64,000 nt of DNA from Eubacteriales Family XIII. Incertae Sedis bacterium (GTDB taxonomy: Bacteria > Bacillota > Clostridia > Peptostreptococcales > Anaerovoracaceae): NCBI GenBank assembly GCA_031261525.1, contig JAISJM010000100.1:1376-65375 (forward strand), in the 5' to 3' direction. Under the pieces are notes generated by a model. That model was given only the letters and a program-made list of their open reading frames with translations. It was not told where the DNA came from and made no database searches. Below, piece after piece: positions 6,564 to 25,332 of this stretch (its first letter is position 1; every line of letters begins with the position of its first letter). Both the position numbers and the translations under genes were made by a program.

Positions 6564-6627
6564 TGGATGCAAATGATGTATTCCGAAGCTTGCGGATTGA
6601 TCATTACATAAAACTGGAGTATAACTT

Positions 6628-7329: not shown

Positions 7330-8120
7330 GTGCGCCAAATGAAATGCTTGCAGTGACACGGCTGGCGAGACTCGATCCGCGCCCAAAACTCATGCTCATG
7401 GCATCGGCATCCACCGCCGCCATGCTTACAAATAACCTCGTAGCGATTGTAAGCATTCTCTGCGTGTTGATGATATCAATGACAATTGGCGGTATGAGCG
7501 TGTCCAATGTGATAAGGCGCGCAAAGTCGCTCTTTGCGCTCATTGTCTTTTTGTTCATCATTCAGATATTTTTCTCTGGAATTGGTGATGTGATGCGTCC
7601 TGAAATCGGTATCGATGTAGTAAAACCGCTTCTTAAAATCGGCAAATTCAACTTATATGTACAGCCGCTTCAATTAGCCGCAGTTCTCTCACTTAGACTA
7701 CTTATCATCGTACTTTCTGCGCTTATCTTGCTTGAGGGTGATGCGCGTGACTATCTCCTTGCGCTCGTGCAGATGAAGGTTCCGTACGAGATTGCATTTA
7801 TGGTCATTGTCGGACTGCATTTCTTGCCGATTCTCAGGGAAGAAACAATCAATATCTATTGTTGTATGCAGCTGCGTGGCAAAGATTTTAAGAAAATTAG
7901 CCTGATCGAAAAATTGAAAGCATATATAAGCATCTGTTTGCCGATTCTTGTCAGTGCACTCAGGCGAGCGGACGAGATGTCCATCTCGATGGAGACGAGG
8001 GGATTTCGCGCCAAGCCAAGTCGCACCAATATGAGGCGACTGACGATGCACAGGTATGACGTCATTTTGACGATACTGTATCCAGTGGTATTTATCGGTC
8101 TGCATTTTATGATACATTAA
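7326..8120 (+). CDS. ECF transporter transmembrane T component (CbiQ/EcfT family)
   Basis: A polytopic membrane protein that contains ALRRADEMSISMETRGF, which resembles the EcfT coupling-helix Ala-Arg-Gly region. It has an ATGA overlap with the upstream ATPase stop and a gaggaag RBS. Confidence 0.75.
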   Translation: MSAPNEMLAVTRLARLDPRPKLMLMASASTAAMLTNNLVAIVSILCVLMISMTIGGMSVSNVIRRAKSLFALIVFLFIIQIFFSGIGDVMRPEIGIDVVKPLLKIGKFNLYVQPLQLAAVLSLRLLIIVLSALILLEGDARDYLLALVQMKVPYEIAFMVIVGLHFLPILREETINIYCCMQLRGKDFKKISLIEKLKAYISICLPILVSALRRADEMSISMETRGFRAKPSRTNMRRLTMHRYDVILTILYPVVFIGLHFMIH

Positions 8121-9612: not shown

Positions 9613-10296
9613 ATGCCAAAACTAGAAGAAACAACAATCGATATCAAAAAACTCCTGCATTCGGAACTCTTCGAAAACCTCACAGAACGCAACGTGCGTA
9701 TCATCTTGGAGCGTTTGCCCTATTGTATTGAGCGCTACGAACGTGAGAAAATGATTGCTGCGCAAGGTAGTAAACTGTATAAAATCGGCATCGTTCTTGA
9801 GGGATCGATTGTAGCATCGAAATTATATGTTGATGGAAGGATTATTCAAAATAGTCACTATGGTCCAAATGATGTTTTCGGCATCATCATCGCTTCTTCA
9901 CGCACGCAGATTTTGCCATATATGTATACTGCCGAGCAGGATAGTGTCATTTTATGGTTTGATTGGAAGACACTGAAAGAGGTTGATTTCTCAAAAATTC
10001 CGATGACAATCCACAACACACTTCTAGATAATATCTTTGCATCTATTGCAAATGACGCCATTCGCACCGATGTCAAAGCGGAAGTGCGTGGTCAACGCAC
10101 CGTAAGGGAGAAAATCCTAAGATTTCTCAACGAGATGGCTGAAAAGAAAGGCTCCAACACCTTTACACTTGATATGACTCAACCCAAATTTGCCGAATAT
10201 CTCTGTGTAACACGCCCAACATTGAATATCGAGCTTGTAAAACTGCGGGAAGACGGCATCATCGATTATCATAAAAAAGTCTATACGATTAAATAA
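9613..10296 (+). CDS. Crp/Fnr family transcriptional regulator
   Basis: An N-terminal cNMP-binding-like beta-roll is followed by a C-terminal HTH (FAEYLCVTRPTLNIELVKLREDGII). Confidence 0.75.
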   Translation: MPKLEETTIDIKKLLHSELFENLTERNVRIILERLPYCIERYEREKMIAAQGSKLYKIGIVLEGSIVASKLYVDGRIIQNSHYGPNDVFGIIIASSRTQILPYMYTAEQDSVILWFDWKTLKEVDFSKIPMTIHNTLLDNIFASIANDAIRTDVKAEVRGQRTVREKILRFLNEMAEKKGSNTFTLDMTQPKFAEYLCVTRPTLNIELVKLREDGIIDYHKKVYTIK

Positions 10297-10439: not shown

Positions 10440-13400
10440 ATGAAATTTAGAAGCATGAGGTCGCTGGTTGCTATGAGCAAACTATATAAGAAAATATCAA
10501 TACTATTCATTTTTGTGATGATTGCCAGTTTTATTCCCCGTCCTTTTGGCGGTTCAGATGTCTATGCCAAGGGAAGTCTTGCGGAGGGCGATACTGTCAA
10601 AAATGTACTCATCTATGCGAAAGATAGCGAAGACAATGATGTACTCCTCTCGCAATTGAATGTTGAGGAGATGCTTGGCTATCTGAATCAGCACATCTCG
10701 GAAATCGGAAAAGTTCATAATTATTCCATTTTAGATACCTATCCCACGACGGTACATCAAGAAGCACAGGGCTTCACGTTGCCCCAGCTACTTGATTATG
10801 CTGTATCAAAATCAAGTCTAACTGACATTGCCACAAACAATTTGACTTTTGATGGAGAAAATAATGGGGAAAAGTCCGTCTCGTTTTGGGAGCTTGATGG
10901 CACAGGCTTTGATGCAACGGATGCGTATACGTATGACAAGTTATACGGTGTGCCAAGATACAATTATCCGAAGATGTATGAGGAATGGAATCCAAATGCA
11001 CAATCGGCAAGCCCTGGTTCTAGCTATGTCAATAAAAACATAGTGGAAGATAGTGCTGTTCCAGAAGAAGTCATTCTGTCGATTACGGCATTTTCCCAAA
11101 GATATAGTAATAGTCAACAAGAAGGCAAGTCTGATTACAACATGGAAGGATATTTTGATAGCATGGGCTTGCTCGATACCTCTAAAGCGATGCGTCTCAT
11201 GCTTCCACTAACGGGACAGGAGTTTGCGGCGGAGACGAAGACTGCGATGAACAGCCGATATGGGATATCGTATATCCGGTTTGATTTAGGTGACGATACT
11301 GGATTGACCTCACTTGGCGAAGTGGCAAAACCGACATGGACGGTGATCGATGGCGATGAAGATAGCACAGACGCATATGAAAGCGGCTATAGTTATTTTA
11401 CATTTGCATGTAATACGCCAGGTGCAACGATATTGTACAACGATAGTTCAACAAGCAGTTACATCCCGACTGCGACATATAACGGACAGGCAATTAAGGT
11501 AAAGAAGATCGGTACAAATGCACGTGCGGCAATCAAAGTCCGTGCTGTGAAAGAGGGCTACACAGATAAAGGCGTCATCAATGCGACAAATATACTGGAT
11601 GAGGGGTTCTATGAAGATGTATCTGAAGATGCGGATGTGTGGGATGGCAAGACGATCGATATGGATTGGTATGTTGGACATGAGGACGACGATGTTTATA
11701 CCATCCATACCGCGGCAGAGCTTGCAGGTCTTGCTGCGATTGTCAATAGCACCACGGACGGGGACACGGATTTGAGTAAGAGAGTGACTTTTGCAGGCAA
11801 GACAGTCACACTTGTCTCGGATATTCATCTCAATCGACAGGTTTGGCGTGGTATCGGATCTGACATGGGCAGGCAGGCTGGAAATGTCGCAACCAATGTC
11901 GACTTGGATTTTTATGATACATTCAGTGGACTCTTTGATGGCAGTGGACATACGATTAGCGGTATGAATCTTGGGGATTCTCCTTGGAATATGGGATTAT
12001 ATGGACTCTTTGGTAATCTTGAAGATGCTACCGTGAAGAATCTGACGGTAAGTGGCATCGGTTATCATGAGATGCCAACTGCGATGGGCGGCATCGCTGG
12101 ACGTGCGATAGACAGCACCATTGAAAACTGCAAGGCAAACATGATGTTAGAGGGTGATGGCAATGTGGAAATGGGCGGTATTGTTGGACGCAGTACGGAT
12201 ACGACGATTCGCAATTGTGAAAATGTCGGCTTACTAAAAGGTTATTATGTTGGCGGTATTGTTGGTCGTGGCTACGAAGATAGTTCCATAAGCGATTGTA
12301 TCAATCATGGATTTATGGATGCCAATGAGGATGCAATCATAAATAGGGGTTTTGGTGGCGGAATCATAGGCTATGCCAGCGATCGTACGCTTATCGCGAA
12401 TTGTAAAAATGATTCTATAAATAAAAATGCAAACAAGTCCGTATCTATGGATGTTGGCGGTATCGGCGGCTATGGCGGTATGTATGTCAATTGTGTAAAT
12501 GATGCAGATATTCGATCCTCAAAATCCGTTGCAGGTATTTTAAACAACGCAGTAAGTGGTAAAAAGATACATAGCGTATCGGATTGTGTGAATTATGGCA
12601 ATCTGAACGGCTCTACTGCATATGGCATTGCTGGGTTTGCAACAATCACGCGCACAATTAATGTGGGCAATCTGACAGGTACGTCCGCATATGGTCTCAC
12701 AGGGAATTACAAGTCTGGTGGCGATGACCCCAATGTATCACTGTCGGCAAACTTTGGTGATGTCTATGGACATGCGATTGCCGCAGGTCTGATTGGAACG
12801 CAGAGCGGCATCTTGAGCAATTCCTTCAATCAAGGCGCTGTTCATAGTGATAAGGCAGGATCTGCTGCGGGGCTTGTCTGGACTGGAAGAAATCGTATCT
12901 CGAATTGCTATGACATATCAGAGAATCCCGTGATCCATGCGGTATCTGGTAGTCCTGTATTTGACAATGTATTCTACCTCGATTCAGGCAATGCAGCAGA
13001 TACAGCGGCGGGTGCATATCCAAATGTTACAGCATGTACAGAAAGCGCCATGAAGAATATTTCATTCGTCAATACGGATTTGGGTGCATACAATGCGGAA
13101 CTAGGCGAACTATCTCCTGGCAAGTTCATCACGACAGGTGGTGGCTATCCTGCCCTGTATTGGCTGCAAAAGAGTCTTACGATTTCTGCAAAACCAAGCA
13201 ACACACAGATTCTATTGAAAGATGCCAGCGGCGTTACTAAAACTGCCGTAACAGTCATCTCAAATAGCGGTATCCTTCATACCTATCCGCTCATCTGGGG
13301 TGCGTCATATACGTATCAAGCAACCGCACCTGGATATCATGCTGAGAATAAGTCTTTCCATCTGAAAGATGAGACAAGCCTTGAAATAAGCCTCTTGACG

Positions 13401-14768
13401 AGCATGGTCAACGAAACGATTCCATCTGAAGTCACGTTAAATTGGGCGGACAATCCGCAGACGACGCAGTCCGTAAGTTGGGCTGACAGCAGTGGTGGTT
13501 CTCAAGTTGTTCAATATATCGTAAGTAGTGCTTACAGCAATGCGGATTCACTGAGTAAGGGTACGTCTGTGATTGGAACTGCAAAGAAACTAGGCAGTAC
13601 CGATAAGACCTATTACAATGCGCAAATGACAGGACTAGAGCCAAATACCACCTATTACTATCGCGTAGGCACGCCAAACAATTGGAGTGAAATCTCTCAT
13701 TTTACAACCGCACAGAGTGATAAAAAGGACTTCAAATTTCTCTTCATGGGCGATATCCAGCGAAGTACAGGCACTGCAGAAGTAGAATATCCACAATGGG
13801 GCAAGCTACTCGGCGATGCCTATACTGCCAACCCAGATATCAAATTCGGATTGACGATTGGTGACATGGTTCAGAGTGGATCCGACCTTACGGACTGGAA
13901 GTATTTCCTATCCTATGCGCAGACGGCATTTTCAAAGATTCCATTAATGCCCAATATTGGTAATCACGAAAGCAATTTTGCAAATGGCAAAGCAGACTAT
14001 TATCTGGATATTTTCAACCTGCCTAAAAATGGTCCCGAAGGCTTCGAAGAAGAATTCTATTCTTTCGATTATGGCAATGTACATATCACAGCGTTGAACA
14101 GTTGGGCGTTGTCAGATGAGCAGGGCATCTACGACACAAAAGGTAACGTGAAAGACGAAACAACCCTGAACCGAATCAATCAATGGATTGAAGATGATCT
14201 TGCATCGACCAAAGCAAAGTTTAAGATTATTACGATGCATCACCCCATATATGCGATGGAAAATGATGCCGTATCGGATCGAGCAAAGATGCAATGGGAG
14301 CCGATTTTTATCGCACAGGGCGTAGATCTTGGTCTTGTCGGACATCAGCATGTCTATTCACGGACGTATTCTATTGCAGATGGCAATCAAGATGATGAAA
14401 AGGGGATCACTTATGTCATGGGCAACGCAGGGTTAAAATACTATAATACCGCTGACGATACGTATGTCGCGAAGATTATCTATAATCAGAGTACATACCA
14501 GATTTTAGATGTCTCTGGGGATACACTTTCGCTGAAGACCTATGATAGAGATGGAAAACAGCTAGATACATGGTCCAAAACCAACGAAACGATTGTCGTT
14601 CCAGGCGATGTCGATGACGATGGTGTGACGACGATGGAGGATGTGAATCGAATCAAGATTGCCGTGCTCGCAGGTGGCAGCTATGACAAGTCACTAGATG
14701 CAAATGGCGACAATGTCGTTGATATTCGAGATGCACAGTATGTACTTCGGATTGTAAATGGACGATAA
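10440..14768 (+). CDS. Giant secreted multidomain protein A (1442 aa): SUOX-fold-like N-module, GLUG beta-helix repeats, purple-acid-phosphatase-like metallophosphoesterase, C-terminal dockerin
   Basis: There is a signal/anchor segment (ISILFIFVMIASFI). Repeated GGIVGR/GGIAGR..NC motifs are GLUG-like. All five metallophosphatase motifs are present: FMGDIQ, IGDMVQSG, IGNHES, MHHPIY, GHQHVY. The C-terminus GDVDDDGVTTMEDVNRI...DANGDNVVDIRDAQYVLRI is a two-F-hand dockerin pattern. Confidence 0.85.
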   Translation: MKFRSMRSLVAMSKLYKKISILFIFVMIASFIPRPFGGSDVYAKGSLAEGDTVKNVLIYAKDSEDNDVLLSQLNVEEMLGYLNQHISEIGKVHNYSILDTYPTTVHQEAQGFTLPQLLDYAVSKSSLTDIATNNLTFDGENNGEKSVSFWELDGTGFDATDAYTYDKLYGVPRYNYPKMYEEWNPNAQSASPGSSYVNKNIVEDSAVPEEVILSITAFSQRYSNSQQEGKSDYNMEGYFDSMGLLDTSKAMRLMLPLTGQEFAAETKTAMNSRYGISYIRFDLGDDTGLTSLGEVAKPTWTVIDGDEDSTDAYESGYSYFTFACNTPGATILYNDSSTSSYIPTATYNGQAIKVKKIGTNARAAIKVRAVKEGYTDKGVINATNILDEGFYEDVSEDADVWDGKTIDMDWYVGHEDDDVYTIHTAAELAGLAAIVNSTTDGDTDLSKRVTFAGKTVTLVSDIHLNRQVWRGIGSDMGRQAGNVATNVDLDFYDTFSGLFDGSGHTISGMNLGDSPWNMGLYGLFGNLEDATVKNLTVSGIGYHEMPTAMGGIAGRAIDSTIENCKANMMLEGDGNVEMGGIVGRSTDTTIRNCENVGLLKGYYVGGIVGRGYEDSSISDCINHGFMDANEDAIINRGFGGGIIGYASDRTLIANCKNDSINKNANKSVSMDVGGIGGYGGMYVNCVNDADIRSSKSVAGILNNAVSGKKIHSVSDCVNYGNLNGSTAYGIAGFATITRTINVGNLTGTSAYGLTGNYKSGGDDPNVSLSANFGDVYGHAIAAGLIGTQSGILSNSFNQGAVHSDKAGSAAGLVWTGRNRISNCYDISENPVIHAVSGSPVFDNVFYLDSGNAADTAAGAYPNVTACTESAMKNISFVNTDLGAYNAELGELSPGKFITTGGGYPALYWLQKSLTISAKPSNTQILLKDASGVTKTAVTVISNSGILHTYPLIWGASYTYQATAPGYHAENKSFHLKDETSLEISLLTSMVNETIPSEVTLNWADNPQTTQSVSWADSSGGSQVVQYIVSSAYSNADSLSKGTSVIGTAKKLGSTDKTYYNAQMTGLEPNTTYYYRVGTPNNWSEISHFTTAQSDKKDFKFLFMGDIQRSTGTAEVEYPQWGKLLGDAYTANPDIKFGLTIGDMVQSGSDLTDWKYFLSYAQTAFSKIPLMPNIGNHESNFANGKADYYLDIFNLPKNGPEGFEEEFYSFDYGNVHITALNSWALSDEQGIYDTKGNVKDETTLNRINQWIEDDLASTKAKFKIITMHHPIYAMENDAVSDRAKMQWEPIFIAQGVDLGLVGHQHVYSRTYSIADGNQDDEKGITYVMGNAGLKYYNTADDTYVAKIIYNQSTYQILDVSGDTLSLKTYDRDGKQLDTWSKTNETIVVPGDVDDDGVTTMEDVNRIKIAVLAGGSYDKSLDANGDNVVDIRDAQYVLRIVNGR

Positions 14769-14783: not shown

Positions 14784-17700
14784 ATGACGAAATACAATAT
14801 CAATGAAAACCATAAATTCCGAATTACAATCGCTATCTTGCTGATTCTCTCTTTGGTTCTGGTTCCTATTACACCATGGCGGCAGCTTGATACATGGGCG
14901 AAGACAGCTGAATCACCACAAGCGAAGAATCTCTTTGTCTATGTGAAAAATGATGAGGATAAAGATATTCTATTAAAGACACTTCCATTAGATGCGCTGA
15001 AGACGATGCAGCATGGCAATGATGCAACACCTGATCCAGATGACAATTACTATTTCTCTGCAATAGACAATCTACCAGCCATCGCATACACGGAGGCAAA
15101 AGGTTTCACAGCACAAGAATTGCTCGAAACTGTAAAAAACACCACGAGCGTAATCAGCCCTGCAGCGATTACGTTTGGTGGCAATGACGCGATTGAACTG
15201 ATGGCAACAGATTCGAATGGAACCTATAATAAATCGTGGACGTACGATGAACTCTACGGTCAGCAGGGCTATTATTATCCTGACATTTTTGATGCTACTA
15301 CAGGCTGGACTTCTGCTTGGACTGTCACTGGAGACGGGTATTCACCAGAGAGTACGCCTGCGATGCCTTTGCCACTCTATATGAGCAGCTACAAAGATGC
15401 GGATCCCACCTATGATAAGAAAGCCGCTGTATCCGAAAGCGCGATAGAAATGGATGCGATTTTTGCTGTCGATTCTGTTACAGACAGAATCGACAATCTA
15501 GCGGAAGAATACGGTAAGACGCGAGCGGAAATCATTGCCAGCGGACTGCCGGGGGAACTTAGCGATGCATATAGACTTACTTTATGCGTGCCTCAGACAC
15601 CGGACGTCCTTTTCTCTGCAAATCACACGATGCATCACTATTTTAAGTGGATTTACAATATCCGCTTGAACATGGCGGACGCGCCTACCATTCCATCCCT
15701 TGGTGAAGTGGAATCGCCGACTGCTGACATTCGTGTAGACCCAGAAAATGAAAATAGACTAATTGTAGACTTTGACGTCGCAACGTCAGGCGCATCCATC
15801 TACTATTCGATTGGAAAAAACAATGCGATTTCTAGTTCTGCAACGGGTGGTGCGATTGAATTTGGTACGGCACCTGTGCATGCGTATACAGGGGAATCCA
15901 TCGCGATTGATTTGAAGTCTGGTGCCGATCTGAAGACGACGCCAATCAAGATTTACATGACAGCGGTCAAAGAAGGCTATACGGATAATGGCATACAGAC
16001 AATAAGCTATCCCAAACAGTCTCCAGATTTGAAGAGAAAGACGAATGAGGCGTATCATGCCATTGGCGAAGATGTTGTGTATGAACTGACTTCACCACCC
16101 GCTGTTACAAATGAAGCATGGATAGACTGGACTTCCAATATCACGGCTGCCTCGATTAAGGTTGGAAGTGACGCTGCTACACCACTTGTAAGTGGCGCTG
16201 GTTTTCGTGTGGACAATACTGCGAGGACATTTGCCATTGACACTTCTTCGTTTACAAAAGTGGGTTCCTATGTTGTAAAGATTGATGCGGATGGATATTC
16301 TCAAAAGACACTGAACTTTACAATGCGCAAAGCTGCGCCGACGATCTCTAGCACGAGCGCATATTATGGTAACCGCATTGACATCAGTGTGCCCGACAAA
16401 GATTATTTAATGACTGGGATACGGTCAATCGATATCAGAAAAGACGGTACTGATACGACATCCAAAGTCACAATCCCTACAAATCGCTATTTAATGACAG
16501 CGGGAGCCGATGGAAAGCCTGGAACGCTTACGATTTCACCTGATTATTATGGCGATATAAATACGGTCATCGATGGTTCTGGTACATATATCATCGGTTT
16601 CAATACGAATGATTATCTTCCAGCAAGACAGGAAATGACTGTCGAAATCAAGGCTGCTGGCGACAATCCAAATGGTTTCTTCGAGTACAGCCTTGCTCCG
16701 AGCAAGGCTTCGGGAACGGTCGGCGATACAATCAAGGTGACCGCCTCGCTGAAATCACAGGGTGGAGATTTTACGTTTTATGGCGGTGAGTACCGAATTG
16801 CGATAGATGCTGGCATGACAGTAAAGAACATTCAGACAGCAAATGGATGGGAAAGTGGCACGACTACATCTGACAAAAAGACAATTTTGACATTTGCAAA
16901 GCTTGAACCTACGAGTGATGGGGAGCTTACGACATCGGTATCTGCCCTTGGAACATTTGATGTGACGCTTGACGCAGTAGGCACAGGAAACCTCACAGCG
17001 ACAAATGCGCTGCTCACCGATGATATCGCACTGAATCGCAACAATGTGTCAGGAAAGAGTCTATCGATTCAGATTGCACCAAAGGCAAATCTGAATCAGA
17101 AGACACCTGCAGCACCGAAATTGACCTATAAATTAAACGCGGACAAAAAGACCTATACCGTCACAATTCCAAAGGTTGCAGGCGCAGAATATAGCTTCGA
17201 TGGAAAGACATTTAGTGCGGCAAGTACTGCCAATGTGAAGAAAAATGTTGCACAAGGGAAAGTGATTACAGGATATATCCGTCTTGCGGCAAAGGCGGGA
17301 TACAACGCAAGTGGCATCGCATCTTCTAAAGTCACGTTGCCCGTTCGCGTGACAAAGATAACCGTGACCTCAAAGAATAATACGGCGGTCATTAAGACAA
17401 AAGGCGGTAAGCTTCAGCTCACAGCAACCGCTAGTCCTGCAAAGGCAACGAACAAATCTGTCACATGGAAAGTGGTTTCCGGCACAGCAGGTACTGTGAA
17501 TTCAAAGGGTGTACTTACAGCCAAATTCAACGGTAAAGTGACCGTCAGAGCCACTGCCAAAGACGGTACAGGTGTCTATGGCCAGAAGATGATTACATTG
17601 TCGAATCAGGCGTATAAAGTGACGTTTAACTCAAATGGGGGCACTGCAATAACGGCGAAAGCTGTCAACAAGAATGCGAAAGTATCAAAGCCGACCAATC

Positions 17701-18056
17701 CGAAGAAGACGGGCTATACTTTTAAGGGCTGGTATACGGATACAAAGCTAAAGAAAGCTTATTCGTTTAGCTCGAAAGTTACGAGCAATAAAACGCTTTA
17801 TGCAAAGTGGGCTGCCAATAAATATGCCGTCACATACGACGCGCATGGTGGCAAGATTGGCAAAGCAAAGACGGTTAAGAAGACGATTGCCTATGCAGCG
17901 AGGTACACATTGCCAGCAACGCCTAAGCGATCTGGATATACATTCAGCGGATGGTATACGACGAATAAAGCAACGGGCGGCACAAAGGTTACAAACAACG
18001 TACAGATGAAGACGGCAAAAGCACACACACTTTACGCTCGCTGGAAGAAGAAATGA
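14784..18056 (+). CDS. Giant secreted multidomain protein B (1090 aa): SUOX-fold-like N-module, Ig-like domains, cohesin-like domain, Big_2 domain, two Listeria-Bacteroides (Flg_new) repeats
   Basis: There is a signal/anchor segment (ITIAILLILSLVLV). The N-module is paralogous to A and D (AYRLTLCVPQT...YFKWIYNIRL). The Big_2 pattern is KLQLTATASPAKATNKSVTWKVVSG. The Flg_new repeats are YKVTFNSNGG...GYTFKGWYTD and YAVTYDAHGG...GYTFSGWYT. The gap from gene A is 15 nt. Confidence 0.85.
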   Translation: MTKYNINENHKFRITIAILLILSLVLVPITPWRQLDTWAKTAESPQAKNLFVYVKNDEDKDILLKTLPLDALKTMQHGNDATPDPDDNYYFSAIDNLPAIAYTEAKGFTAQELLETVKNTTSVISPAAITFGGNDAIELMATDSNGTYNKSWTYDELYGQQGYYYPDIFDATTGWTSAWTVTGDGYSPESTPAMPLPLYMSSYKDADPTYDKKAAVSESAIEMDAIFAVDSVTDRIDNLAEEYGKTRAEIIASGLPGELSDAYRLTLCVPQTPDVLFSANHTMHHYFKWIYNIRLNMADAPTIPSLGEVESPTADIRVDPENENRLIVDFDVATSGASIYYSIGKNNAISSSATGGAIEFGTAPVHAYTGESIAIDLKSGADLKTTPIKIYMTAVKEGYTDNGIQTISYPKQSPDLKRKTNEAYHAIGEDVVYELTSPPAVTNEAWIDWTSNITAASIKVGSDAATPLVSGAGFRVDNTARTFAIDTSSFTKVGSYVVKIDADGYSQKTLNFTMRKAAPTISSTSAYYGNRIDISVPDKDYLMTGIRSIDIRKDGTDTTSKVTIPTNRYLMTAGADGKPGTLTISPDYYGDINTVIDGSGTYIIGFNTNDYLPARQEMTVEIKAAGDNPNGFFEYSLAPSKASGTVGDTIKVTASLKSQGGDFTFYGGEYRIAIDAGMTVKNIQTANGWESGTTTSDKKTILTFAKLEPTSDGELTTSVSALGTFDVTLDAVGTGNLTATNALLTDDIALNRNNVSGKSLSIQIAPKANLNQKTPAAPKLTYKLNADKKTYTVTIPKVAGAEYSFDGKTFSAASTANVKKNVAQGKVITGYIRLAAKAGYNASGIASSKVTLPVRVTKITVTSKNNTAVIKTKGGKLQLTATASPAKATNKSVTWKVVSGTAGTVNSKGVLTAKFNGKVTVRATAKDGTGVYGQKMITLSNQAYKVTFNSNGGTAITAKAVNKNAKVSKPTNPKKTGYTFKGWYTDTKLKKAYSFSSKVTSNKTLYAKWAANKYAVTYDAHGGKIGKAKTVKKTIAYAARYTLPATPKRSGYTFSGWYTTNKATGGTKVTNNVQMKTAKAHTLYARWKKK

Positions 18057-18219: not shown

Positions 18220-20808
18220 ATGTTGAAGACGCACACAAGCGCAAAGCACAAAATTCTATCCATTTTATTGGCGTTGTTGATTGTGGTATCATTTATGCCA
18301 CAAGTTCCGCAGGTTTATGCGGATGATATTGTGGGTGGCAATGAAGCACCAATCGTCAGTACGTGGGATGGTCAAAGCTATGATATTTCTTGGTACAACA
18401 CGGAAGATACAGAGTTTACACTCAATTCCGCAGCACAATTTGCAGGGTTTGCAGCGATTGTAAATGGTGAGACCCAAATTTGGGATGATGATACAAATCA
18501 ACCAACCCCATGGTACAATGGTGGAACAGCGATTCCTGGTGAGCCGCTCAAGATCGGTGAGCAAACGATTGCTGCGGATGATTTTACGGATAAGATTGTC
18601 AATCTAAATGCGGATGTTGATTTGGGCGGCATCTATGATGCTGAAGAGGGCACATGGGGTGGTGCCGTATGGCCTGTAATCGGACATTATACGAGTTCAA
18701 GTGCGGCTGGAAGTAATGATGGCCTAAAAGGCATTCCGTTCAAAGGTACTTTCAATGGTAATTTCCATAGCATCTCAAATATGTATGTAAGAGGTGATTA
18801 TTCAGCCGCTGATGATGTTGCGTCATGTAACTCAAAAGGATTATTTGGCGATTTAGGACATGTTGCACTTGTCAAAAATGTAATTCTTACATCAGGCTAT
18901 GTTACGGTAGCACGCTTTGGTGGTGGTATTGTCGGTAGAAACTGGGGCAATGTAGAGAATTGCGCAAATGGCGCGACAGTTGTTGGTAGAGGTCGTGGTG
19001 GTGCAGGCGGTATTGTCGGTGCAAATTATTACAACAATTTACCATTACCTGAGATTACAAATAGTTATAATTTTGGTACAGTTAAAAATCTTGGTGGTTC
19101 AAAATATTATCACGCAGGTGGAATTGCTTCCTTAAATGAGGGCGTTATTACAAACTGCTATAATGTTGGAACGATTATCAGCCGAGATCAAGCGGGTGGT
19201 ATGGCGGCTGAATCCAAGACGCTGATGAATAGTTTTACACTTGCTGGAACAAATGTAAAAGCGACAGCAAATGGCGAAGAAGTAAGTCGTACTGATGCAC
19301 TCGTGGGTAAAAACAATGGTACCATTGATGCAACTTCTGCAATTCTTACAAGCGATGACATGACGGATCCTGCATTTGTCACTTTACTAAATGGCGAGGA
19401 CAATGCCTTTGTTCCAGATTTATCTGGTATCAATCAAGGTTATCCAATCCTCAGTGGTTATGCACTTTTAGCCGTTTCAAAAGAACTATACTCAATTGAA
19501 GTAAAGACACAGCCAAATCAACGAGCTTACACGAGCGGTGATTCTTTCAATAAAGATGGACTCGAAATTGAAGCAACCTACTTAAATGGTGAAAAGAGTA
19601 TCCTTGCAGATGAAGACTATAGCGTCACTCCAGAAGTATTAAGCTCTGCGGATACAAGCGTTACCGTGAGCTATACCGATGGTGATATTACAAAGAATGT
19701 AACAATCGACGGCATCACCGTTGAAAAAAGAACCATCTCTGCAATCACAGAACCTGCAATTACAGGCGATGCAACGGTAAATAACACGCTTTCAGTAAGT
19801 ACTGGCGAATGGAGCGAGACACCAGATGCGGTAACCTATCAATGGTATGCAGATGCTGCACCAATTACAGGTGCAACGGACAGCACCTATAAGCTGACAG
19901 TAGCGGATCATAGTAAAGCAATCACGGCTCAAGTAACGGCATCCAAAGAAGAATGTCATGATGCTTCGATTGTCTCTAGTCCAACTGCCAAAGTCGGTGC
20001 ATGTACAATAGAAGTACAATCCCCGAGCATTACAGGTACTGCTAAAGTTGGTCAGACGCTGAAAGTGGATGCTGGTGTATGGAATCCAGAGGCAGAAATT
20101 CTAGGATATCAGTGGCTTGTCAATGGTACAGAAATTGCAAATGCAACAGGCACATCCTATCAGATCAAATCAGGTGACCTTGGAAAAGCAATCTCCGTGA
20201 AAGTCACCGCAAAGATATTGGATTATTACACTGTTGTACATACATCTACAAAGACTGCAAAGGTGACCGCAGACTTCGTCAAAGGAGATGTGAAAATCAC
20301 AGGAACTGTAAAAGTTGGTAAGCAGCTCAAGGCAGTACCTGATAGCAAATGGAGTCCAAAGCCAACTTATACCTATCAATGGTATGCAAATGGTCAGGCA
20401 ATTAAAAATGCAACAAAAGTGAACTATACAATCGCAAGTGGTGATTTTGGCAAGCAGATTACAGTTAAGGTAACTGCCAAGAAAGCAAATTATGTCACTG
20501 CAACAAAGACTTCTGCAAAGACTGCAAAGGTAAAAGCTGGAGACTTCACAAAAGGTAGCATTACAATCTCTGGCAAAGCGAAAGTTGGACAAAAGCTTAC
20601 TGCCAAGACAGCAAAGTGGAGTCCAACACCAACATTCACGTATCAATGGTATGCAAATGGCAAGGCAATCAAGAATGCAACGAAGTCTACTTATACATTA
20701 AAGGCGGCTGAGAAAGGAAAGAAAATCACAGTCAAGGTTACTGCGAAGAAGACAAACTATGTAACTGTCTCAAAGACTTCTGCAAAGACCACAAATGTAG
20801 TAAAATAA
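18220..20808 (+). CDS. Secreted GLUG-repeat protein C (862 aa) with one Big_3-like domain and four C-terminal ~89-aa YQWY repeats
   Basis: The signal peptide ends ...QVYA/DD. The N-terminus (TWDGQSYDISWY...AAQFAGFAAIVNG) is paralogous to the A segment VWDGKTIDMDWY...AAELAGLAAIVNS. GLUG-like GGIVGRN/GGIVGAN motifs are present. Confidence 0.85.
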   Translation: MLKTHTSAKHKILSILLALLIVVSFMPQVPQVYADDIVGGNEAPIVSTWDGQSYDISWYNTEDTEFTLNSAAQFAGFAAIVNGETQIWDDDTNQPTPWYNGGTAIPGEPLKIGEQTIAADDFTDKIVNLNADVDLGGIYDAEEGTWGGAVWPVIGHYTSSSAAGSNDGLKGIPFKGTFNGNFHSISNMYVRGDYSAADDVASCNSKGLFGDLGHVALVKNVILTSGYVTVARFGGGIVGRNWGNVENCANGATVVGRGRGGAGGIVGANYYNNLPLPEITNSYNFGTVKNLGGSKYYHAGGIASLNEGVITNCYNVGTIISRDQAGGMAAESKTLMNSFTLAGTNVKATANGEEVSRTDALVGKNNGTIDATSAILTSDDMTDPAFVTLLNGEDNAFVPDLSGINQGYPILSGYALLAVSKELYSIEVKTQPNQRAYTSGDSFNKDGLEIEATYLNGEKSILADEDYSVTPEVLSSADTSVTVSYTDGDITKNVTIDGITVEKRTISAITEPAITGDATVNNTLSVSTGEWSETPDAVTYQWYADAAPITGATDSTYKLTVADHSKAITAQVTASKEECHDASIVSSPTAKVGACTIEVQSPSITGTAKVGQTLKVDAGVWNPEAEILGYQWLVNGTEIANATGTSYQIKSGDLGKAISVKVTAKILDYYTVVHTSTKTAKVTADFVKGDVKITGTVKVGKQLKAVPDSKWSPKPTYTYQWYANGQAIKNATKVNYTIASGDFGKQITVKVTAKKANYVTATKTSAKTAKVKAGDFTKGSITISGKAKVGQKLTAKTAKWSPTPTFTYQWYANGKAIKNATKSTYTLKAAEKGKKITVKVTAKKTNYVTVSKTSAKTTNVVK
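19735..20805 (+). repeat. Four tandem coding repeats of about 267 bp (ITG.AKVG..L.A....WSP.PT..YQWY.NG..I.NAT...Y.......GK.ITVKVTAKK.NY)
   Basis: Read from the translation. A fifth copy lies in gene D at about 21705-21940. Confidence 0.85.
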
Positions 20809-20812
20809 TTAT

Positions 20813-22423
20813 ATGATTAAAAAAGCTGTTATAATTTTAATTCTATCCATACTCGTAGCCACTTCGGCTACGAGTATGTTTGGTGAATGGGACTTTTATT
20901 CTTATGCGGAGTCAGGTGGAACGAAAGAAGAAACTACGACAAACGAAGAATTGACGATACGTGTTGGATATTTTGGTTCGTCGCCAGATTATGTGGAAGT
21001 GAAGAAATACTCCCTTGCTGATTTACATGCGCTTGGTGTTCATGATCAGTCCTATAGCTGGATTGATTCGCTACCAGCACCCGTCATGCAAGCGACAAGA
21101 GGCGTCTATCTTCGAGATTTGATTGCAGATGCAGGAATTGATATCTATTCGGTCTCTCGATATGATTTCAGATCACGCGATGCGCATGAGCCATGGAGTG
21201 AGATGACATCACAGGCACTCTTTGATACGCCAAGGTATTTTTATCCAAATTTGGTGAGTACATGGGATCCGATCACGAATTGGATTGGTGTGGGCGTAGA
21301 AGAGGGAAGGGCTCCAGTCGAGGCAATGCTTGCGGTGGAAGACTATTGGGAACGCAGTATCTCAGAGCCTGACTATAGTAAGCTGCATGCAGCAGATTGC
21401 TATCGACTTGTCTTTGGTATGCCAACTTCGGATACAAAACTTGCGCATGATTCAATCAAATGGATTAAATCAATTGACTTGATGCTTGTCGGTTCACCAC
21501 CAGATGATTTTGGTAAAAATGATGAGGACGATTTAGCGGGTAGCGATCAGGATAACAACAACCCGGGTACTGGTAATGAACACGACCAAGATAAAGATAA
21601 AGAAAAAGACGATGACAATTCTTCGGATACTGGCAATCCAGATAAAGGTAAAGATACCAATGATGGCACGCCTGGTGCGACATTTGCAGAGGCATCGGAA
21701 CCAACCATTCGAGGCGTCGCACAGGTTCGTGAGACGCTTACTGCGTATCCTGGCACATGGTCGCCAACACCAACTTATGAATACCAATGGTATGCGGAGG
21801 ATGTGGCAATTGCGCGGGCTACAAATCAGACTTATCAGGTGAAGACAATGGATGTAGGCAAGCGGATTACGGTTAAGGTTACAGGCAGAAAAAGCGGCTA
21901 TACGGCAATGACCAAGACTTCGGCACCCACCGAACCTGTCGCACCAAAAGACCGCGATAGCAAAGTCTTTGGCGAAAAGGAGCAAAATGACAATGGTATA
22001 GATAGCAACGGAGGTGGTGATGACAAGCAAAACCACGGTGGCAGTGATGGCGATGCAGATGCAAGTGACCGCAGTGCTGCCAATGACAAGTCTGGTAGTG
22101 ACTCGGGTACAGGTGGCGGAAAGTATGTTCAAATTGGGCTTGCAGGTGGTGATACCATCTCGGGTAAAGAGCTCTCTGCCGCAGACACGCTGAAAATGCT
22201 CGCCCTTGCTGGTGATGCGGGCGGCACGGGTACGGACAGCCCGTGGACAGCCTATGAAATTTCACCAGATACTGTGCCATTTAAGTTACCGCCGCCAGAT
22301 ATGAAGATGGTCGCGGTTGTGTTGGGGCTGCTTGTCCTCGCATTTATTGGCGGTGGTGTTCAGGGCTATATGACGTTCAATCCTGAACTCATGAGGCATA
22401 TAATGAAGAAAAGAAGGAGCTAA
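20813..22423 (+). CDS. Membrane-tethered surface protein D (536 aa): signal peptide, SUOX-fold-like module, acidic D/K/N linker, one YQWY repeat, G/D/S-rich linker, Pro-rich segment, C-terminal TM anchor
   Basis: GVYLRDLIADAGIDIY ... CYRLVFGMP ... SIKWIKSIDL matches the Oxidored_molyb-type signature. The C-terminus is PFKLPPPDMKMVAVVLGLLVLAFIGGGV followed by the basic tail KKRRS. The gap after gene C is 4 nt. Confidence 0.8.
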   Translation: MIKKAVIILILSILVATSATSMFGEWDFYSYAESGGTKEETTTNEELTIRVGYFGSSPDYVEVKKYSLADLHALGVHDQSYSWIDSLPAPVMQATRGVYLRDLIADAGIDIYSVSRYDFRSRDAHEPWSEMTSQALFDTPRYFYPNLVSTWDPITNWIGVGVEEGRAPVEAMLAVEDYWERSISEPDYSKLHAADCYRLVFGMPTSDTKLAHDSIKWIKSIDLMLVGSPPDDFGKNDEDDLAGSDQDNNNPGTGNEHDQDKDKEKDDDNSSDTGNPDKGKDTNDGTPGATFAEASEPTIRGVAQVRETLTAYPGTWSPTPTYEYQWYAEDVAIARATNQTYQVKTMDVGKRITVKVTGRKSGYTAMTKTSAPTEPVAPKDRDSKVFGEKEQNDNGIDSNGGGDDKQNHGGSDGDADASDRSAANDKSGSDSGTGGGKYVQIGLAGGDTISGKELSAADTLKMLALAGDAGGTGTDSPWTAYEISPDTVPFKLPPPDMKMVAVVLGLLVLAFIGGGVQGYMTFNPELMRHIMKKRRS

Positions 22424-22426
22424 CGA

Positions 22427-23041
22427 TTGGATACGAGTTCAGTTAAATCAGCAATACATATCATCTCTTCGTCACTTGAGATACCCGCAATTATCGTATT
22501 AATTTTGGCGGTTGTCATTGTTGTATCCCAGATTGGGAGTGTTATGATAGAGTTTTTTACAGAGCGCATGGGGAAGAATCCCAACGTCACGAAAGTATTG
22601 GAAAACATTTCTGGCAAAGAGCGTACACAGATTCTTGAAATCATCAATGCCAATCCATTTCAGAAATCTCAAAAAAGGGCATTTGCGCGCTTCCTTCAAA
22701 GCGATATCATCTCAGTCGATGAACAGAAGCTTTTCGCAGTGCAGCTTCTATCCGAGACAGAATCAAGGCTCGACCGCCGCATCGCAGTTACGGACATCAT
22801 TGCGCGCATCGGTCCCATGTTTGGCTTGATGGCAACATTGATTCCGCTAGGACCGGGGCTTATCGCACTCGGTCAAGGTGACACGCGGACATTGTCCGAT
22901 TCGCTACTTACGGCATTTGATGCTACGGTAGCGGGACTTGCTGCTGCAGGTGTAGCGTATATTATTTCCAAAATTAGGAAAAGATGGTATCAAAGTGATA
23001 TGATGGCAATGGAGACAATACTGGAAGGAGTGATTCGCTGA
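22427..23041 (+). CDS. MotA/TolQ/ExbB-family proton-channel protein (204 aa)
   Basis: Three predicted TM segments are present. The C-terminal half, IGPMFGLMATLIPLGPGLIALGQGD...LLTAFDATVAGLAAAGVAYI, follows the MotA_ExbB pattern (P..GL.GT......L.......L...I..AL.TT..GL). TTG start 7 nt after aaggag. Confidence 0.75.
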   Translation: MDTSSVKSAIHIISSSLEIPAIIVLILAVVIVVSQIGSVMIEFFTERMGKNPNVTKVLENISGKERTQILEIINANPFQKSQKRAFARFLQSDIISVDEQKLFAVQLLSETESRLDRRIAVTDIIARIGPMFGLMATLIPLGPGLIALGQGDTRTLSDSLLTAFDATVAGLAAAGVAYIISKIRKRWYQSDMMAMETILEGVIR

Positions 23042-23382
23042 TGCTCAGAAGCAATTATAGAAGTAGAAAACGCTATTTTGATGAAGAGGATGTCAATCCA
23101 ATGGAGGGCGCTGTCAATATCGTTGACGCGATGCTCGTCTTCGCTTGTGGACTCATGCTCAGCCTTGTCATCTACTGGAATGTTGATATTCAAAATAAGG
23201 AACTTGTACCCGTATCGCGAGGTCAAGAAGTCTCTGGCATTGAAAGCACACAGGAAGATTTGCAAGGTAGCATCGATGGGGAAGGTCAATATGAGAAGAT
23301 GGGGACTGTATATGTGGATCCGAAAACGGGCAAGATGTATATGGTAAATGAGGATACCGATGGTACAGAAAATGAAGAGTAA
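23041..23382 (+). CDS. ExbD/TolR-like single-pass membrane protein (DUF2149-like, 113 aa)
   Basis: A basic N-tail is followed by the TM segment NPMEGAVNIVDAMLVFACGLMLSLVIYW. Its Asp (codon 23125-23127) lies where ExbD/TolR carry the proton-relay Asp (compare P.IDVMLVLLIFF). The start overlaps the upstream stop (TGATG). Confidence 0.65.
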   Translation: MLRSNYRSRKRYFDEEDVNPMEGAVNIVDAMLVFACGLMLSLVIYWNVDIQNKELVPVSRGQEVSGIESTQEDLQGSIDGEGQYEKMGTVYVDPKTGKMYMVNEDTDGTENEE

Positions 23383-24469
23383 TCGCATTGCAATCTTTTT
23401 TATCCTGCTATTTACAATCGCGGCATTTGCGACATTTTCAGGCTGTAGCAAGGCTGATTCATCTTCGCTCCATTATTTGGATCAGAAAATCACAATTGTC
23501 GGCGTGTCGGACGAGGACTTTACAGTCACCGTTTCCAATCTGACAAAGCTGGATCGTGTGGAAAAAAAAGCAGAAGCAACGAGATCCAATGGCGATATTG
23601 TAAAGATGAAAGCGGTTGGTCCAACGCTTGAGACATTTCTTGCGCAGTATGATAAACTTCCCACGGATTACTCGTCTGTACGGTTTACCGCGACAGACGG
23701 TTATTCGATTGCGATTCCACGAGAGATTCTTGAACGGCGCGAAATCGTCTTAGCCTATATGGATGGCAAACATGCCTTTGGCAAAGATATGGCGCCGTTG
23801 CGCGTTGTTGTCCTTGGTGAACGCGCGATGTACTGGGCGCGCATGGTCAACAAAATTGAATTTGAGACAGGCACGGAATCTTTGACGACAGATAAAGTCG
23901 TCTTTCTTGATACCATTTTGCCAGATATGAACAGTACCTATAGCGAAGAAGAGGGTGGCGATATCGTCAGTACGATTGATTTGCTTACAAAATATGGCGG
24001 TCTGGATAGTGATGGCAAAGTCTATATGTCAGCTTATGACGGTCTAAAGAAAAATGAAACCATTGATAATTTTCTAAAAGGTTACATCAAATATACGGGT
24101 GAGATGACACCTCAATTTTGCTCACCAGATTTACCACCGGGTATGAATCTCGACGGCATTGTGTCCGCAAGGGTTGGCGGCGTCATCTATTATTCGCTGA
24201 ATCGCGCTTTAGAAGTTCTGCCAGAAAAGGAAGCTGCTGGCGTGAAAGGTATCGGTTTCACTGACATCATAAAGGATGGGGGCTTTAAGCGTGCCAATTT
24301 GTATCAAATTACAGATAAAGATGGCAATTACTCCGTATTTAATGAACATGAAATTGTAAAAGGCGTCTTTACAAAAGACAATGACACGTGGACTTTTGTA
24401 TCCGCGGAGAAAGATCCAGTCATTGGTGTCGTCATGGTAGAGGGCATCGACATGGAACAAGGCGAATAA
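23360..24469 (+). CDS. Lipoprotein G with SUOX-fold-like (Oxidored_molyb-like) module(s)
   Basis: The lipobox is AFATFSG/C. The segment VRFTATDGYSIAIP..IVLAYMDGKHAFGKDMAPLRVVVLGERAMYWARMVNKIEFE closely follows the MsrP/YedY-type pattern. ATG 23360 lies 5 nt after gagga. The track start is 23348. Confidence 0.75.
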   Translation: MVQKMKSNRIAIFFILLFTIAAFATFSGCSKADSSSLHYLDQKITIVGVSDEDFTVTVSNLTKLDRVEKKAEATRSNGDIVKMKAVGPTLETFLAQYDKLPTDYSSVRFTATDGYSIAIPREILERREIVLAYMDGKHAFGKDMAPLRVVVLGERAMYWARMVNKIEFETGTESLTTDKVVFLDTILPDMNSTYSEEEGGDIVSTIDLLTKYGGLDSDGKVYMSAYDGLKKNETIDNFLKGYIKYTGEMTPQFCSPDLPPGMNLDGIVSARVGGVIYYSLNRALEVLPEKEAAGVKGIGFTDIIKDGGFKRANLYQITDKDGNYSVFNEHEIVKGVFTKDNDTWTFVSAEKDPVIGVVMVEGIDMEQGE

Positions 24470-24495
24470 AGATTCAAGGGCGATGGGAGAATGGG

Positions 24496-25332
24496 ATGCT
24501 CGTAAACAATAACCGCTATGACAACTACGACAGCAGCAACAGCAACAGCAACGACAATAACAGCAACAGGCGCTTTGTTGCGACATTTGCAATGATTTTA
24601 ATTGCGATATTGGTCACGCTCGGACTGTTTTTGTCAGGTTGTGCGTCACGCAGTGCGCCTCGCAGTACGTCAAGTAGTACAGAGGAACGTTTCCTCTCCA
24701 TTGAGGGGGACGTCATAGATTATCGATCGATGAAGACTGGCGATCAAGATTTTTCTGGCATATCATTGCCAGAATTTTTATCTGAAAGCAAGATTTCTGG
24801 TACCCCCAAATACATCTATCTCATCTCATCTGGCGATGGATTTGTCGCGAAGATTGACTATGAAAATTCAGAAAAAGTTTCTATTATTTTTAGTGAGACG
24901 ACAGGCTGGAGCATCGTCGCACCTGACCATCCCATCAGCACCAATGCCGTAGACTTAGATAAAATCATTGTCGTATCTGACGATAGTGAAGTTGGTCTTC
25001 ACATCATCAAGCAAGATGGCAGTACGGATATCGTATCGATGGGCAAAATCCTCACCTCTCCGATGCTGTATGAACTGCATTATGAAGGCGCTTCCGATAT
25101 TGGTAGTGGAAAAGACAAACGCACAACAGAAATATATACAAGGCAGATGTCGGTAAAATTGGCTGATATCTATGATGCGTACAACGATGAACCATTTGCT
25201 GTCACAACAAAATCAGGCGACAAATATCTGACAGACGGTAGCGGACGTTTTTCTATGAATCGGCAAAAAATAAACTACATCGAAGAAACGGGTGACATTT
25301 ACGAAGATGTTCAAGAGATACAGCTACGGTAA
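24496..25332 (+). CDS. Lipoprotein H, paralogous extracytoplasmic module, with an N/S-rich N-terminal extension
   Basis: The lipobox is GLFLSG/C, preceded by NNNRYDNYDSSNSNSNDNNSNRR. The start was set at ATG 24496 behind gggagaatggg. The module ISLPEFLSESKISG..YIYLISSGDGFVAKIDYE resembles the G/D modules. Confidence 0.65.
   Translation: MLVNNNRYDNYDSSNSNSNDNNSNRRFVATFAMILIAILVTLGLFLSGCASRSAPRSTSSSTEERFLSIEGDVIDYRSMKTGDQDFSGISLPEFLSESKISGTPKYIYLISSGDGFVAKIDYENSEKVSIIFSETTGWSIVAPDHPISTNAVDLDKIIVVSDDSEVGLHIIKQDGSTDIVSMGKILTSPMLYELHYEGASDIGSGKDKRTTEIYTRQMSVKLADIYDAYNDEPFAVTTKSGDKYLTDGSGRFSMNRQKINYIEETGDIYEDVQEIQLR

Follow-up and report, generated by a model that had tools for sequence, protein, structure and literature searches.

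The 64-kb stretch of DNA analyzed here (hereafter, the window) comes from a metagenome-assembled genome (MAG) of Clostridiales Family XIII/Anaerovoracaceae and carries an operon, A-B followed by C-D-E-F-G-H (10440-25332), in which the adjacent genes E and F almost certainly encode a motor of the ExbB/ExbD type. A preliminary description made from the sequence alone had singled out E and F as a stator-like pair in an apparently outer-membrane-less, non-flagellar setting. The source organism, a Gram-positive gut anaerobe, is apparently a monoderm, the outer membrane being taken as absent because of the taxonomy of the MAG. A Pfam scan of 48 of the larger open reading frames (ORFs) of the window revealed housekeeping genes and a Tad-like ATPase, and no flagellar, TonB or TonB-dependent receptor, Tol-Pal, or gliding genes, as had been noted. 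The features of the operon are as follows, starting with those that are central to the analysis.

22427..23041, + strand: E, ExbB/TolQ-type A subunit, 204 amino acids, three transmembrane (TM) segments (Pfam, PDB profile, AlphaFold2 (AF2)/Foldseek, conservation)
23041..23382, + strand: F, DUF2149 B-subunit-like protein, 113 amino acids (PF09919, stop/start overlap with E, E-F synteny)
23125..23127, + strand: GAC codon of Asp29 of F, putative proton-relay residue (conservation, hhalign register with ExbD D25)
20813..22423, + strand: D, candidate third component (jackhmmer domain, synteny, juxtamembrane motif, AF2/Foldseek)
23348..24469, + strand: G, lipoprotein with a cysteine-less SUOX/PruR-like domain (PF00174, 24.3 bits; family profile)
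10440..14768, + strand: A, surface protein with a SUOX/PruR-like domain (residues 90-284), GLUG, a purple-acid-phosphatase-type metallophosphoesterase, and a dockerin
14784..18056, + strand: B, surface protein with an N-terminal SUOX/PruR-like domain (residues 42-302), a Shr-like hemoglobin-interaction domain, Big_2, and Listeria-Bacteroides repeats
18220..20808, + strand: C, large surface protein with GLUG motifs, Big_3, and five Ig-like repeats of about 75 amino acids (Pfam)
24388..25332, + strand: H, second lipoprotein with an LSGC lipobox (ORF call; ORF cluster 6)

The E and F subunits

Translation of E starts at a TTG codon (22427), with GAAGGAG located 7 nucleotides before it. Residues 101-196 match the MotA_ExbB domain of Pfam (PF01618, 41.6 bits against a cut-off of 22.9), and NCBIfam yields sub-threshold matches to MotA/TolQ alone. 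A profile built from E and 19 homologs retrieved MotA (E-value 1.5e-5) and ExbB (2.5e-3) from the PDB sequences, with Thr167 of E aligned to Thr181 of ExbB (numbered by counting along E. coli ExbB); a threonine of MotA corresponds to this residue as well. The positions that are invariant among E homologs include T137, P140, P143, D165, and T167, and the Thr/Pro pattern that lines the channel in the last two TM helices (T137, P140, P143, T167) is kept in E. Three long helices make up the AF2 model (pLDDT 88), for which Foldseek ranks ExbB (5zfp, 5sv0, 6tyi, 9ddp) and TolQ (8vlw, 9avi) highest among PDB structures, with TM-scores of 0.62-0.68 (at most 0.67 for TolQ); the first 23 matches are ExbB or TolQ chains only, the majority of them ExbB, and PomA and MotA rank after these. 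The profile matches and the fold thus bear out the original assignment of E to the MotA/ExbB family.

The ATG of F (23041) shares the nucleotides TGATG with the TGA stop codon of E and is preceded by GGAAGGAG. The protein consists of a basic N-terminal tail, a single TM helix, NIVDAMLVFACGLML, and about 65 residues beyond this helix that include the conserved C-terminal motif GTVYVDPKTGKMY. Of the initial picture, the basic tail and the single TM segment stand, whereas the outer tail, originally characterized as acidic, is not merely that: it ends in a near-invariant stretch of 13 residues, G-x-V-Y-x-D-P-x-T-G-K-[LM]-[YF], among family representatives clustered at 50% identity. The sole Pfam match of F is DUF2149 (PF09919, 35.6 bits against a cut-off of 27.1). 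There is no NCBIfam match and no Pfam match to the ExbD (PF02472), TolR, or OmpA models, in agreement with the previous observation that F has neither an OmpA-like domain nor an ExbD fold of normal length.

The aspartate of F encoded at 23125-23127, to which a proton-relay role had been attributed, indeed is a conserved residue of the TM helix. Asp29 is kept in all 120 close homologs of F and in 149 of 150 distant representatives of the family (clustering at 50% identity, 524 representatives in all, median identity to F of 37%). An hhalign comparison of F with E. coli ExbD and TolR places IVDAMLVF over FIDVMLVL (16 columns, E-value 0.049), in agreement, as regards ExbD and TolR, with the alignment of this aspartate that had been proposed. 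The F profile gave zero matches among the PDB sequences, and because of this and of the mere 16 columns of the hhalign match, the homology of F to ExbD is something that we infer.

The pair as such is of a recognized kind; its context is new. The NCBI names of both window proteins already match the MotA_ExbB/DUF2149 families, and the combination of these families is known as HmuU/HmuV of the Bacteroidota heme operon hmuYRSTUV, for which the literature offers hypothetical roles, namely, energizing of HmuR or transport across the inner membrane.

SUOX-fold partners and the tungsten/molybdenum neighborhood

In a scan of one genome per GTDB species, close relatives of E turned up at 592 loci or more. 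Of these, the best 80 were examined by calling and clustering their ORFs, and the counts below refer to 82 non-redundant loci (85 sources in the case of the domain scan). The best 80 are nearly all from Bacillota, namely, Anaerovoracaceae, Mogibacterium, Syntrophomonas, Pelotomaculum, Desulfotomaculaceae, and Dethiobacteria, along with one Methanobrevibacter. F directly follows E in 82 of the 82 loci, and the gene directly upstream of E encodes a D-like protein in about 70 of 77, frequently overlapping E by 4 nucleotides. The D-like proteins possess a signal peptide, a domain homologous to residues 36-240 of D, a C-terminal hydrophobic helix, and a conserved tail on the cytoplasmic side, for example, [KR][KR]Y-x-E-Y-x-K-E.

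In the window, the stop codon of D lies 3 nucleotides 5' of E. From the N-terminus to the C-terminus, D consists of a signal peptide, a divergent SUOX/PruR-like domain (residues 36-240), an acidic linker, an Ig-like repeat, a low-complexity stretch, the PW..YEIS juxtamembrane motif that is common to the D orthologs, a TM helix, and a basic tail. The AF2 model of D (pLDDT 84) matches only YedY, PruR (7kou), and SorT in the PDB when searched with Foldseek, YedY being the best fold match. The search for homologs of full-length D was swamped by the Ig-like repeat, which is present in Actinomycetota surface proteins, and left about 8 true orthologs.

The SUOX-like domain was identified in 260 proteins, at 1-8 per locus; they come from 79 of 85 scanned sources, or from 76 if only the 82 non-redundant loci are counted. 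A, B, D, and G are the window proteins with this domain. G scores 24.3 bits with the Oxidored_molyb domain of Pfam (PF00174) and its relatives up to 44.6 bits. From the PDB, the G-family profile retrieves the sulfite dehydrogenases SoxC (E-value 1.7e-9) and SorA, as well as 7kom (2.3e-5) and 7kos (0.037), two entries described as 'pterin binding proteins'. The sequence of a short G-type protein, searched singly against the PDB, produced noise only. At the position of the molybdenum-ligand cysteine, the G family contains Arg, Thr, or Ser, and there is no invariant cysteine. As judged by inspection of the sequences, the signal peptides of the SUOX-like proteins are of the Sec or lipoprotein type rather than Tat, which argues against the export of a preloaded cofactor. 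With the missing ligand cysteine and these signals, the family resembles PruR, a secreted, cysteine-less SUOX-fold protein that has been shown to bind pterins (PMC11194511). The D117-x-Y119 motif of G is invariant in the family and, in an alignment with a truncated G profile (E-value 0.14 only), lies opposite N-D-Y of 7kom. From the sequences, we take the family D-x-Y to be the counterpart of the pterin-contact Asn/Tyr of Agrobacterium tumefaciens PruR, the two being equated without direct alignment. The PW motif of PruR is absent from the profile alignment of the G family.

The neighborhoods of the relatives point to tungsten and molybdenum. In 11 of the 20 loci scanned with Rfam, RF01055, the riboswitch of the molybdenum cofactor (Moco) and tungsten cofactor (Tuco), scores at or above the gathering threshold; apart from this, the scan of these 20 loci detected one small RNA and nothing else. 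Our own covariance model, built from five RF01055 matches and applied at E<1e-6, has matches in 19 of 82 sources, with 31 of the 33 matches on the operon strand. Many of the riboswitch matches are directly 5' of the first gene of an operon of the form [S-FecCD-ATPase-Peripla_BP_2-D-E-F-G] or [S-S-D-E-F-S...] or of an energy-coupling factor (ECF) module, and some loci contain second copies before genes for large surface proteins or aldehyde:ferredoxin oxidoreductase (AFOR). The P3 stem is absent from both riboswitches that were inspected; the P3-less variant is associated with Tuco (Regulski et al. 2008). In locus L035 (2968-3774) and five other loci, the gene directly behind the riboswitch encodes a TrmO_N (UPF0066) protein; fusions of FmdE to a TrmO_N domain and to a molybdopterin-binding domain are described in the FmdE literature, where FmdE-family genes are also reported beside metal transporters. 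In L036, the gene in this position encodes NTPase_1.

The adjoining genes in relatives include those for AFOR and ferredoxin, MobB-FdhD, ThiF/MoeB, MoeA/MogA-type proteins, MoaA, and formate dehydrogenase. The association with molybdenum or tungsten was observed in Anaerovoracaceae, Syntrophomonadaceae, Desulfotomaculaceae, Dethiobacteria, Thermacetogeniaceae, and one methanogen. Importers of the FecCD or ECF type are encoded in 34 of the 82 loci and in 25 of the 40 with full flanks (21 loci with FecCD and Peripla_BP_2, 13 with the PF09819 ECF S component). The closest long relative is L006, where E is 71% identical and the order D-E-F-G is the same as in the window; its operon continues into a SBP_bac_11/permease/ATPase transporter of the Tup/Mod-like type and then moaA. 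In Methanobrevibacter, the order is Peripla_BP_2-FecCD-ATPase-FmdE-DUF2162-E-F, flanked by fdhD, fdhC/A/B, moaA, and mobB. The preliminary description had named a consistent link of orthologous pairs to an unrelated known function, such as a metal uptake ABC system, as a finding that would speak against it. A link of this kind indeed exists in part, given the importers in 34 of 82 loci and the riboswitches and genes for molybdenum- or tungsten-cofactor proteins in many loci; the assignment of the motor is not affected.

A link to cobalamin or heme was also considered, because of the 'cobalt' annotations of the FecCD/ECF proteins and the Shr-like domain of B, and was rejected: no cobalamin riboswitch was detected by Rfam in the 20 loci, and no chelatase was seen. 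In the operons of Syntrophomonas and Desulfotomaculaceae, FMN_bind and NapH-like Fer4 membrane proteins are encoded (L029, 15771-17904; L027, 15334-16056); this module, which is present in 5 of the 82 loci, may be an extracytoplasmic electron-transfer add-on.

Proposed mechanism and alternative readings

The E-F family probably has a role related to molybdenum or tungsten. More specifically, we propose, with a probability of about 0.5, a Ton-like, proton-powered system for the capture and hand-over of tungsten or molybdenum species in monoderm anaerobes, with both the mechanism and the ligand deduced from homology and genomic context. The preliminary description envisaged a new use of the motor, wired to surface proteins. 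The genetic link of the pair to D, G, and H and to the paralogs A and B persists, and a role in nutrient acquisition analogous to that of Ton takes the place of the proposed new use. For the copy in the window, the powered uptake of tungsten or molybdenum would be transferred from its relatives: its operon contains neither a riboswitch nor an importer, and its function is assigned through its orthologs and the architecture that it has in common with them.

By homology, E and F would form an E5F2 complex, in which Asp29 of F would be the proton relay facing Thr137/Thr167 of E. D would be a wall-spanning protein with its C-terminal helix beside the motor, and D, E, and F together would make up the powered core of a surface acquisition system whose predicted binding modules are the cysteine-less SUOX/PruR-fold domains on A, B, D, and G. 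Tungsten or molybdenum species would be captured by such domains on A, B, and D, and proton flow would be converted into mechanical work on D through its helix, tail, and juxtamembrane motif; alternatively, the force might reach the wall proteins via the hairpin-like C-terminal motif of F. This work would free tightly bound cargo for transfer to the lipoproteins G/H and then to the importer, much as TonB-ExbBD acts on outer-membrane receptors. A Ton-like transduction of force as such is a tentative element, for which we would give somewhat less than even odds. Tungsten or molybdenum species are the most likely cargo because the operons of relatives are under the Tuco-type riboswitch and contain, or lie beside, FecCD, ECF, or Tup/Mod importers. 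Candidate cargos are the oxyanion, chelated or thio forms, and the pterin cofactor: the importers of the FecCD and ECF types favor a larger organometallic ligand, and the adjacent Tup/Mod-like system favors the oxyanion. On the most far-reaching reading, which we consider rather unlikely, monoderm anaerobes and some methanogens would possess a TonB-independent, mechanical uptake system driven by the proton-motive force, in which an ExbB/ExbD-like motor, coupled to a wall-spanning receptor with a pterin-binding fold, scavenges tungsten or molybdenum through the cell wall; its boldest version has preformed Tuco/Moco or molybdopterin as the cargo.

Several known systems share parts of this architecture. 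The ExbB-ExbD-TonB system has the same A-subunit fold (5sv0/6tyi/9ddp) with the Thr167/Thr181 correspondence, a B subunit with a single TM helix whose Asp shares the D25 register, a bitopic third protein whose long linker leads to a distal binding domain (D would be its counterpart here), and a link to nutrient uptake. The differences are that F does not match PF02472 and is devoid of the periplasmic domain of ExbD; that the membrane anchor of D is C-terminal and its domain SUOX-like, whereas TonB is anchored at the N-terminus and carries the TonB C-terminal domain; and that there is no TonB-dependent transporter among the 48 window ORFs and apparently no outer membrane. TolQ-TolR-TolA is likewise a three-gene motor with an elongated bitopic partner, and TolQ (8vlw, 9avi) is among the best matches of E, whereas Pal, TolB, and a link to division are missing here and F has no TolR periplasmic domain. 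MotA-MotB, PomA-PomB, and ZorAB belong to the same superfamily and share the conserved TM Asp of the B subunit. Unlike these, E crosses the membrane three rather than four times and has a cytoplasmic domain of small size, F lacks both a plug and an OmpA-like domain, and neither flagellar genes (48 window ORFs) nor Zorya genes (PADLOC) were found. The DUF2162-MotA_ExbB-DUF2149 clusters of methanogens (the closest archaeal E, from Methanobrevibacter, is 42% identical) contain the same E-F pair and adjoin a FecCD-type importer and molybdenum/tungsten genes (fdhD, fdhAB, moaA, mobB, FmdE); these clusters, in contrast, encode the polytopic DUF2162 upstream and have no D-like SUOX-fold anchor or large wall proteins.

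A number of observations weigh against the proposed uptake role. The riboswitch is limited to 19 of the 82 loci, and the locus counts do not represent independent events because many of the loci are phylogenetically close. In the window, there is no importer inside the operon, no molybdenum/tungsten gene among the 48 ORFs scanned with Pfam, and no Moco/Tuco riboswitch either at the Rfam gathering score or with our own covariance model under default filters; with the filters off, the best match of that model in the window reaches 10 bits. The canonical Tup/Mod-type transporter beside some copies implies that the E-F system is not needed merely for the import of oxyanions. The Shr-like domain of B and the homologs in the Bacteroidota heme operon suggest that the family may serve several cargos. 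The register of Asp29 of F with ExbD D25 and TolR D23 comes from the same 16-column hhalign match, which is statistically weak, and the extracytoplasmic part of F shows no match to a folded domain in Pfam, NCBIfam, or the PDB profile search. Because F has no folded periplasmic domain and no TonB/TolA homolog was found, force transmission is argued by analogy only, and the binding of a ligand by the SUOX/PruR-like domains is putative.

The same data can be read in other ways. The SUOX-like proteins could be extracytoplasmic molybdo- or tungsto-enzymes in a reductase chain of the MsrP/YedY type, with E/F as an accessory ion channel or assembly factor. Moco riboswitches are known to control genes of cofactor-using enzymes too, the FMN_bind and NapH-like Fer4 proteins look like an electron-transfer chain, and the best fold match of D is YedY. 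We nevertheless consider this improbable, since the fold in common with the SUOX molybdoenzymes comes with Arg, Thr, or Ser in place of the molybdenum-coordinating cysteine and with Sec/lipoprotein rather than Tat signals, the putative electron-transfer module is confined to 5 of 82 loci, and up to 8 paralogs per locus, fused to adhesin-like repeats, are unlike enzymes. Also improbable is the uptake of heme, another tetrapyrrole, or a metal chelate, as in hmuYRSTUV, with the molybdenum/tungsten neighborhood being secondary in some lineages. This reading draws on the identity of the Pfam pair and its order in E-F and in HmuT-HmuU-HmuV (Porphyromonas gingivalis PG1554-56; Bacteroides thetaiotaomicron BT0491-93), where a membrane protein also precedes the pair in an operon for the acquisition of a metal cofactor, on the typical use of FecCD/Peripla_BP_2 importers for heme, B12, and siderophores, and on the Shr-like domain of B (30 bits). 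The Hmu system, in contrast, operates with an outer membrane, the TonB-dependent HmuR, the hemophore HmuY, the CobN-like HmuS, and iron/heme regulation, whereas the E-F partners are SUOX/PruR-fold surface proteins in organisms that apparently have no outer membrane, and relatives are under the Tuco-type riboswitch. Neither HmuY and HmuR nor a CobN/HmuS-like chelatase was found in the window, including A-H, or among about 50 locus ORFs (11 loci) run through Pfam, no cobalamin riboswitch appeared in the 20 loci, and the molybdenum/tungsten association recurs across the five Bacillota lineages named above and one methanogen.

Given the large adhesin-like partners with SLH, dockerin, Big_2, GLUG, and Listeria-Bacteroides repeats, as well as the window operon with no importer, there is a slim chance that E/F belong to an envelope machine of the Tol or Agl/Gld kind that moves, tensions, or anchors the wall and S-layer proteins A-D and serves integrity, adhesion, or surface motility instead of the uptake of nutrients; this would leave the riboswitch, the importers, the cofactor genes, and the conserved small-ligand-binding fold unexplained, and the ORF scans of the window revealed no linked gliding or division genes. 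Smaller still is the likelihood of PruR-like signaling, in which surface SUOX-fold domains would sense excreted pterins and D/E/F would relay the signal. The precedent is the secreted, cysteine-less SUOX-fold pterin sensors (PMC11194511), and matches to these (7kos/7kou/7kom) were obtained by both PDB sequence and fold searches. PruR, however, is a small soluble sensor that acts with DcpA in Proteobacteria and contains the PW motif, which the G family lacks, whereas the domain here is fused with anchor or adhesin-like modules and has a motor as its partner. No DcpA-type or other output domain was seen in the loci, such motors are not known as signal transducers of this kind, and the links to importers and the riboswitch indicate supply. 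Finally, ZorAB is a MotAB/ExbBD-like 5:2 motor outside flagellar contexts, which brings to mind an anti-phage function; we give this hardly any credence, because PADLOC found no match for E, F, or D, nor for G, and only a chance-level one for H (E-value 0.015), the long tail of ZorA is missing from E, no genes resembling ZorC/D are present, and the synteny is that of a conserved chromosomal locus, not of a defense island. Powered capture and hand-over of tungsten or molybdenum species fits the missing cysteine ligand, Sec export, the importers, the Tuco-type riboswitch, and the molybdenum/tungsten neighbors across phyla better than any of these alternatives.

Motors of the Exb/Tol/Mot class are understood as carrying the energy of the inner membrane to the outer membrane or the flagellar rotor. 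The MotA_ExbB+DUF2149 branch has its own third component and a regulatory and genomic tie to the tungsten/molybdenum cofactor economy. If the proposed role is correct, energized uptake would extend to bacteria with no outer membrane, the long-unexplained HmuTUV proteins would gain a testable role, and a function would be assigned to many cysteine-less surface proteins that resemble molybdopterin oxidoreductases. It would also bear on how the AFOR and formate dehydrogenase of syntrophs, gut anaerobes, and methanogens are supplied with tungsten in sulfidic environments poor in this metal. Should the cargo be the preformed pterin cofactor, this would be the first prokaryotic system for Moco/Tuco salvage, and HmuTUV of Bacteroidota would be reinterpreted. 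The protein families involved are known, whereas the D-E-F core, its SUOX/PruR-fold partners, and the tungsten/molybdenum link in monoderms are undescribed, as far as the searched literature shows. Literature searches on DUF2149 and DUF2162, on the uptake or salvage of Moco, and on ExbB in monoderms turned up no description of this system, the reviews of 5:2 motors and surveys of Ton/Tol evolution do not treat the MotA_ExbB+DUF2149 branch, and one recent survey considers the Ton components of monoderms to be probably non-functional.

Other genes of the operon and of the window

A, B, C, and D fall into one ORF cluster. The Ig-like repeat of about 75 amino acids (TGxWSPxPTYxYQWY...), of which there are five in C and one in D (21700-21950), occurs also in Actinomycetota surface proteins. 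In B, the Shr-like domain (residues 442-514) is located beside the SUOX-like domain, which, on the basis of sequence, hints that some of the SUOX-like paralogs may bind other cargo. The purple-acid-phosphatase-type domain is found on surface proteins of the system in three distant lineages (A in the window, L001, and L002); loci of A. odorimutans and Thermacetogeniaceae are among those that have it. Phosphatases of this type are well known to be inhibited by, or to bind, tungstate and molybdate. Genes for cohesin-domain proteins adjoin the operon in close relatives (L009, 677-2713; L010, 1237-3291), and A has a dockerin at its C-terminus; cohesin-dockerin pairs may thus serve to attach the surface proteins. 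As called, G and H begin within the genes before them; the likelier starts, which yield lipoprotein signal peptides of a typical kind, are ATG 23372 (MKSNR...FSGC lipobox) and ATG 24496 (MLVNNN...LSGC), respectively. Members of the H family recur 3' of G (cluster 6 is present in 12 loci), and some relatives show a faint match to Phosphodiest.

Two near-identical terminator-like hairpins (..ACAGTCAG-loop-CTGACTGT.. and then a run of T), at 10353-10380 and 18109-18136, lie after the upstream Crp-type regulator gene and between B and C and thus flank A-B. This arrangement suggests that A-B and C-H are separate transcription units or that a regulatory element was duplicated. Two further features lie upstream of the operon.

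9613..10296, + strand: Crp/FNR-type regulator directly upstream of the operon (cluster 12)
5724..8120, + strand: ECF energizing module, two ATPases and a CbiQ-type T component (Pfam; identity to the L006 trio)

The Crp/FNR-type regulator is placed likewise in other Anaerovoracaceae (cluster 12 in L001/L013, L012, L014, and L079). The ECF module is 56-58% identical to the L006 trio, which itself is directly upstream of the E/F operon of that locus; no S component of the PF09819 type was found in the 64-kb window. An NTPase_1 (THEP1-like) gene (8959-9579) adjoins E/F loci in other Anaerovoracaceae too (cluster 10). Elsewhere in the window, there is a Tad/Flp-like pilus cluster (36362-43856, with a T2SSE ATPase at 37571-38779 and DUF5702 at 41738-43114) that appears to be unrelated. 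The regions 2299-5680 and 48326-50701 encode an AbfD-like enzyme of the HpaB family and a CoA transferase, as well as an IspH(LytB)-S1 fusion protein; the AbfD-like enzyme and the CoA transferase suggest fermentation of the butyrate type.

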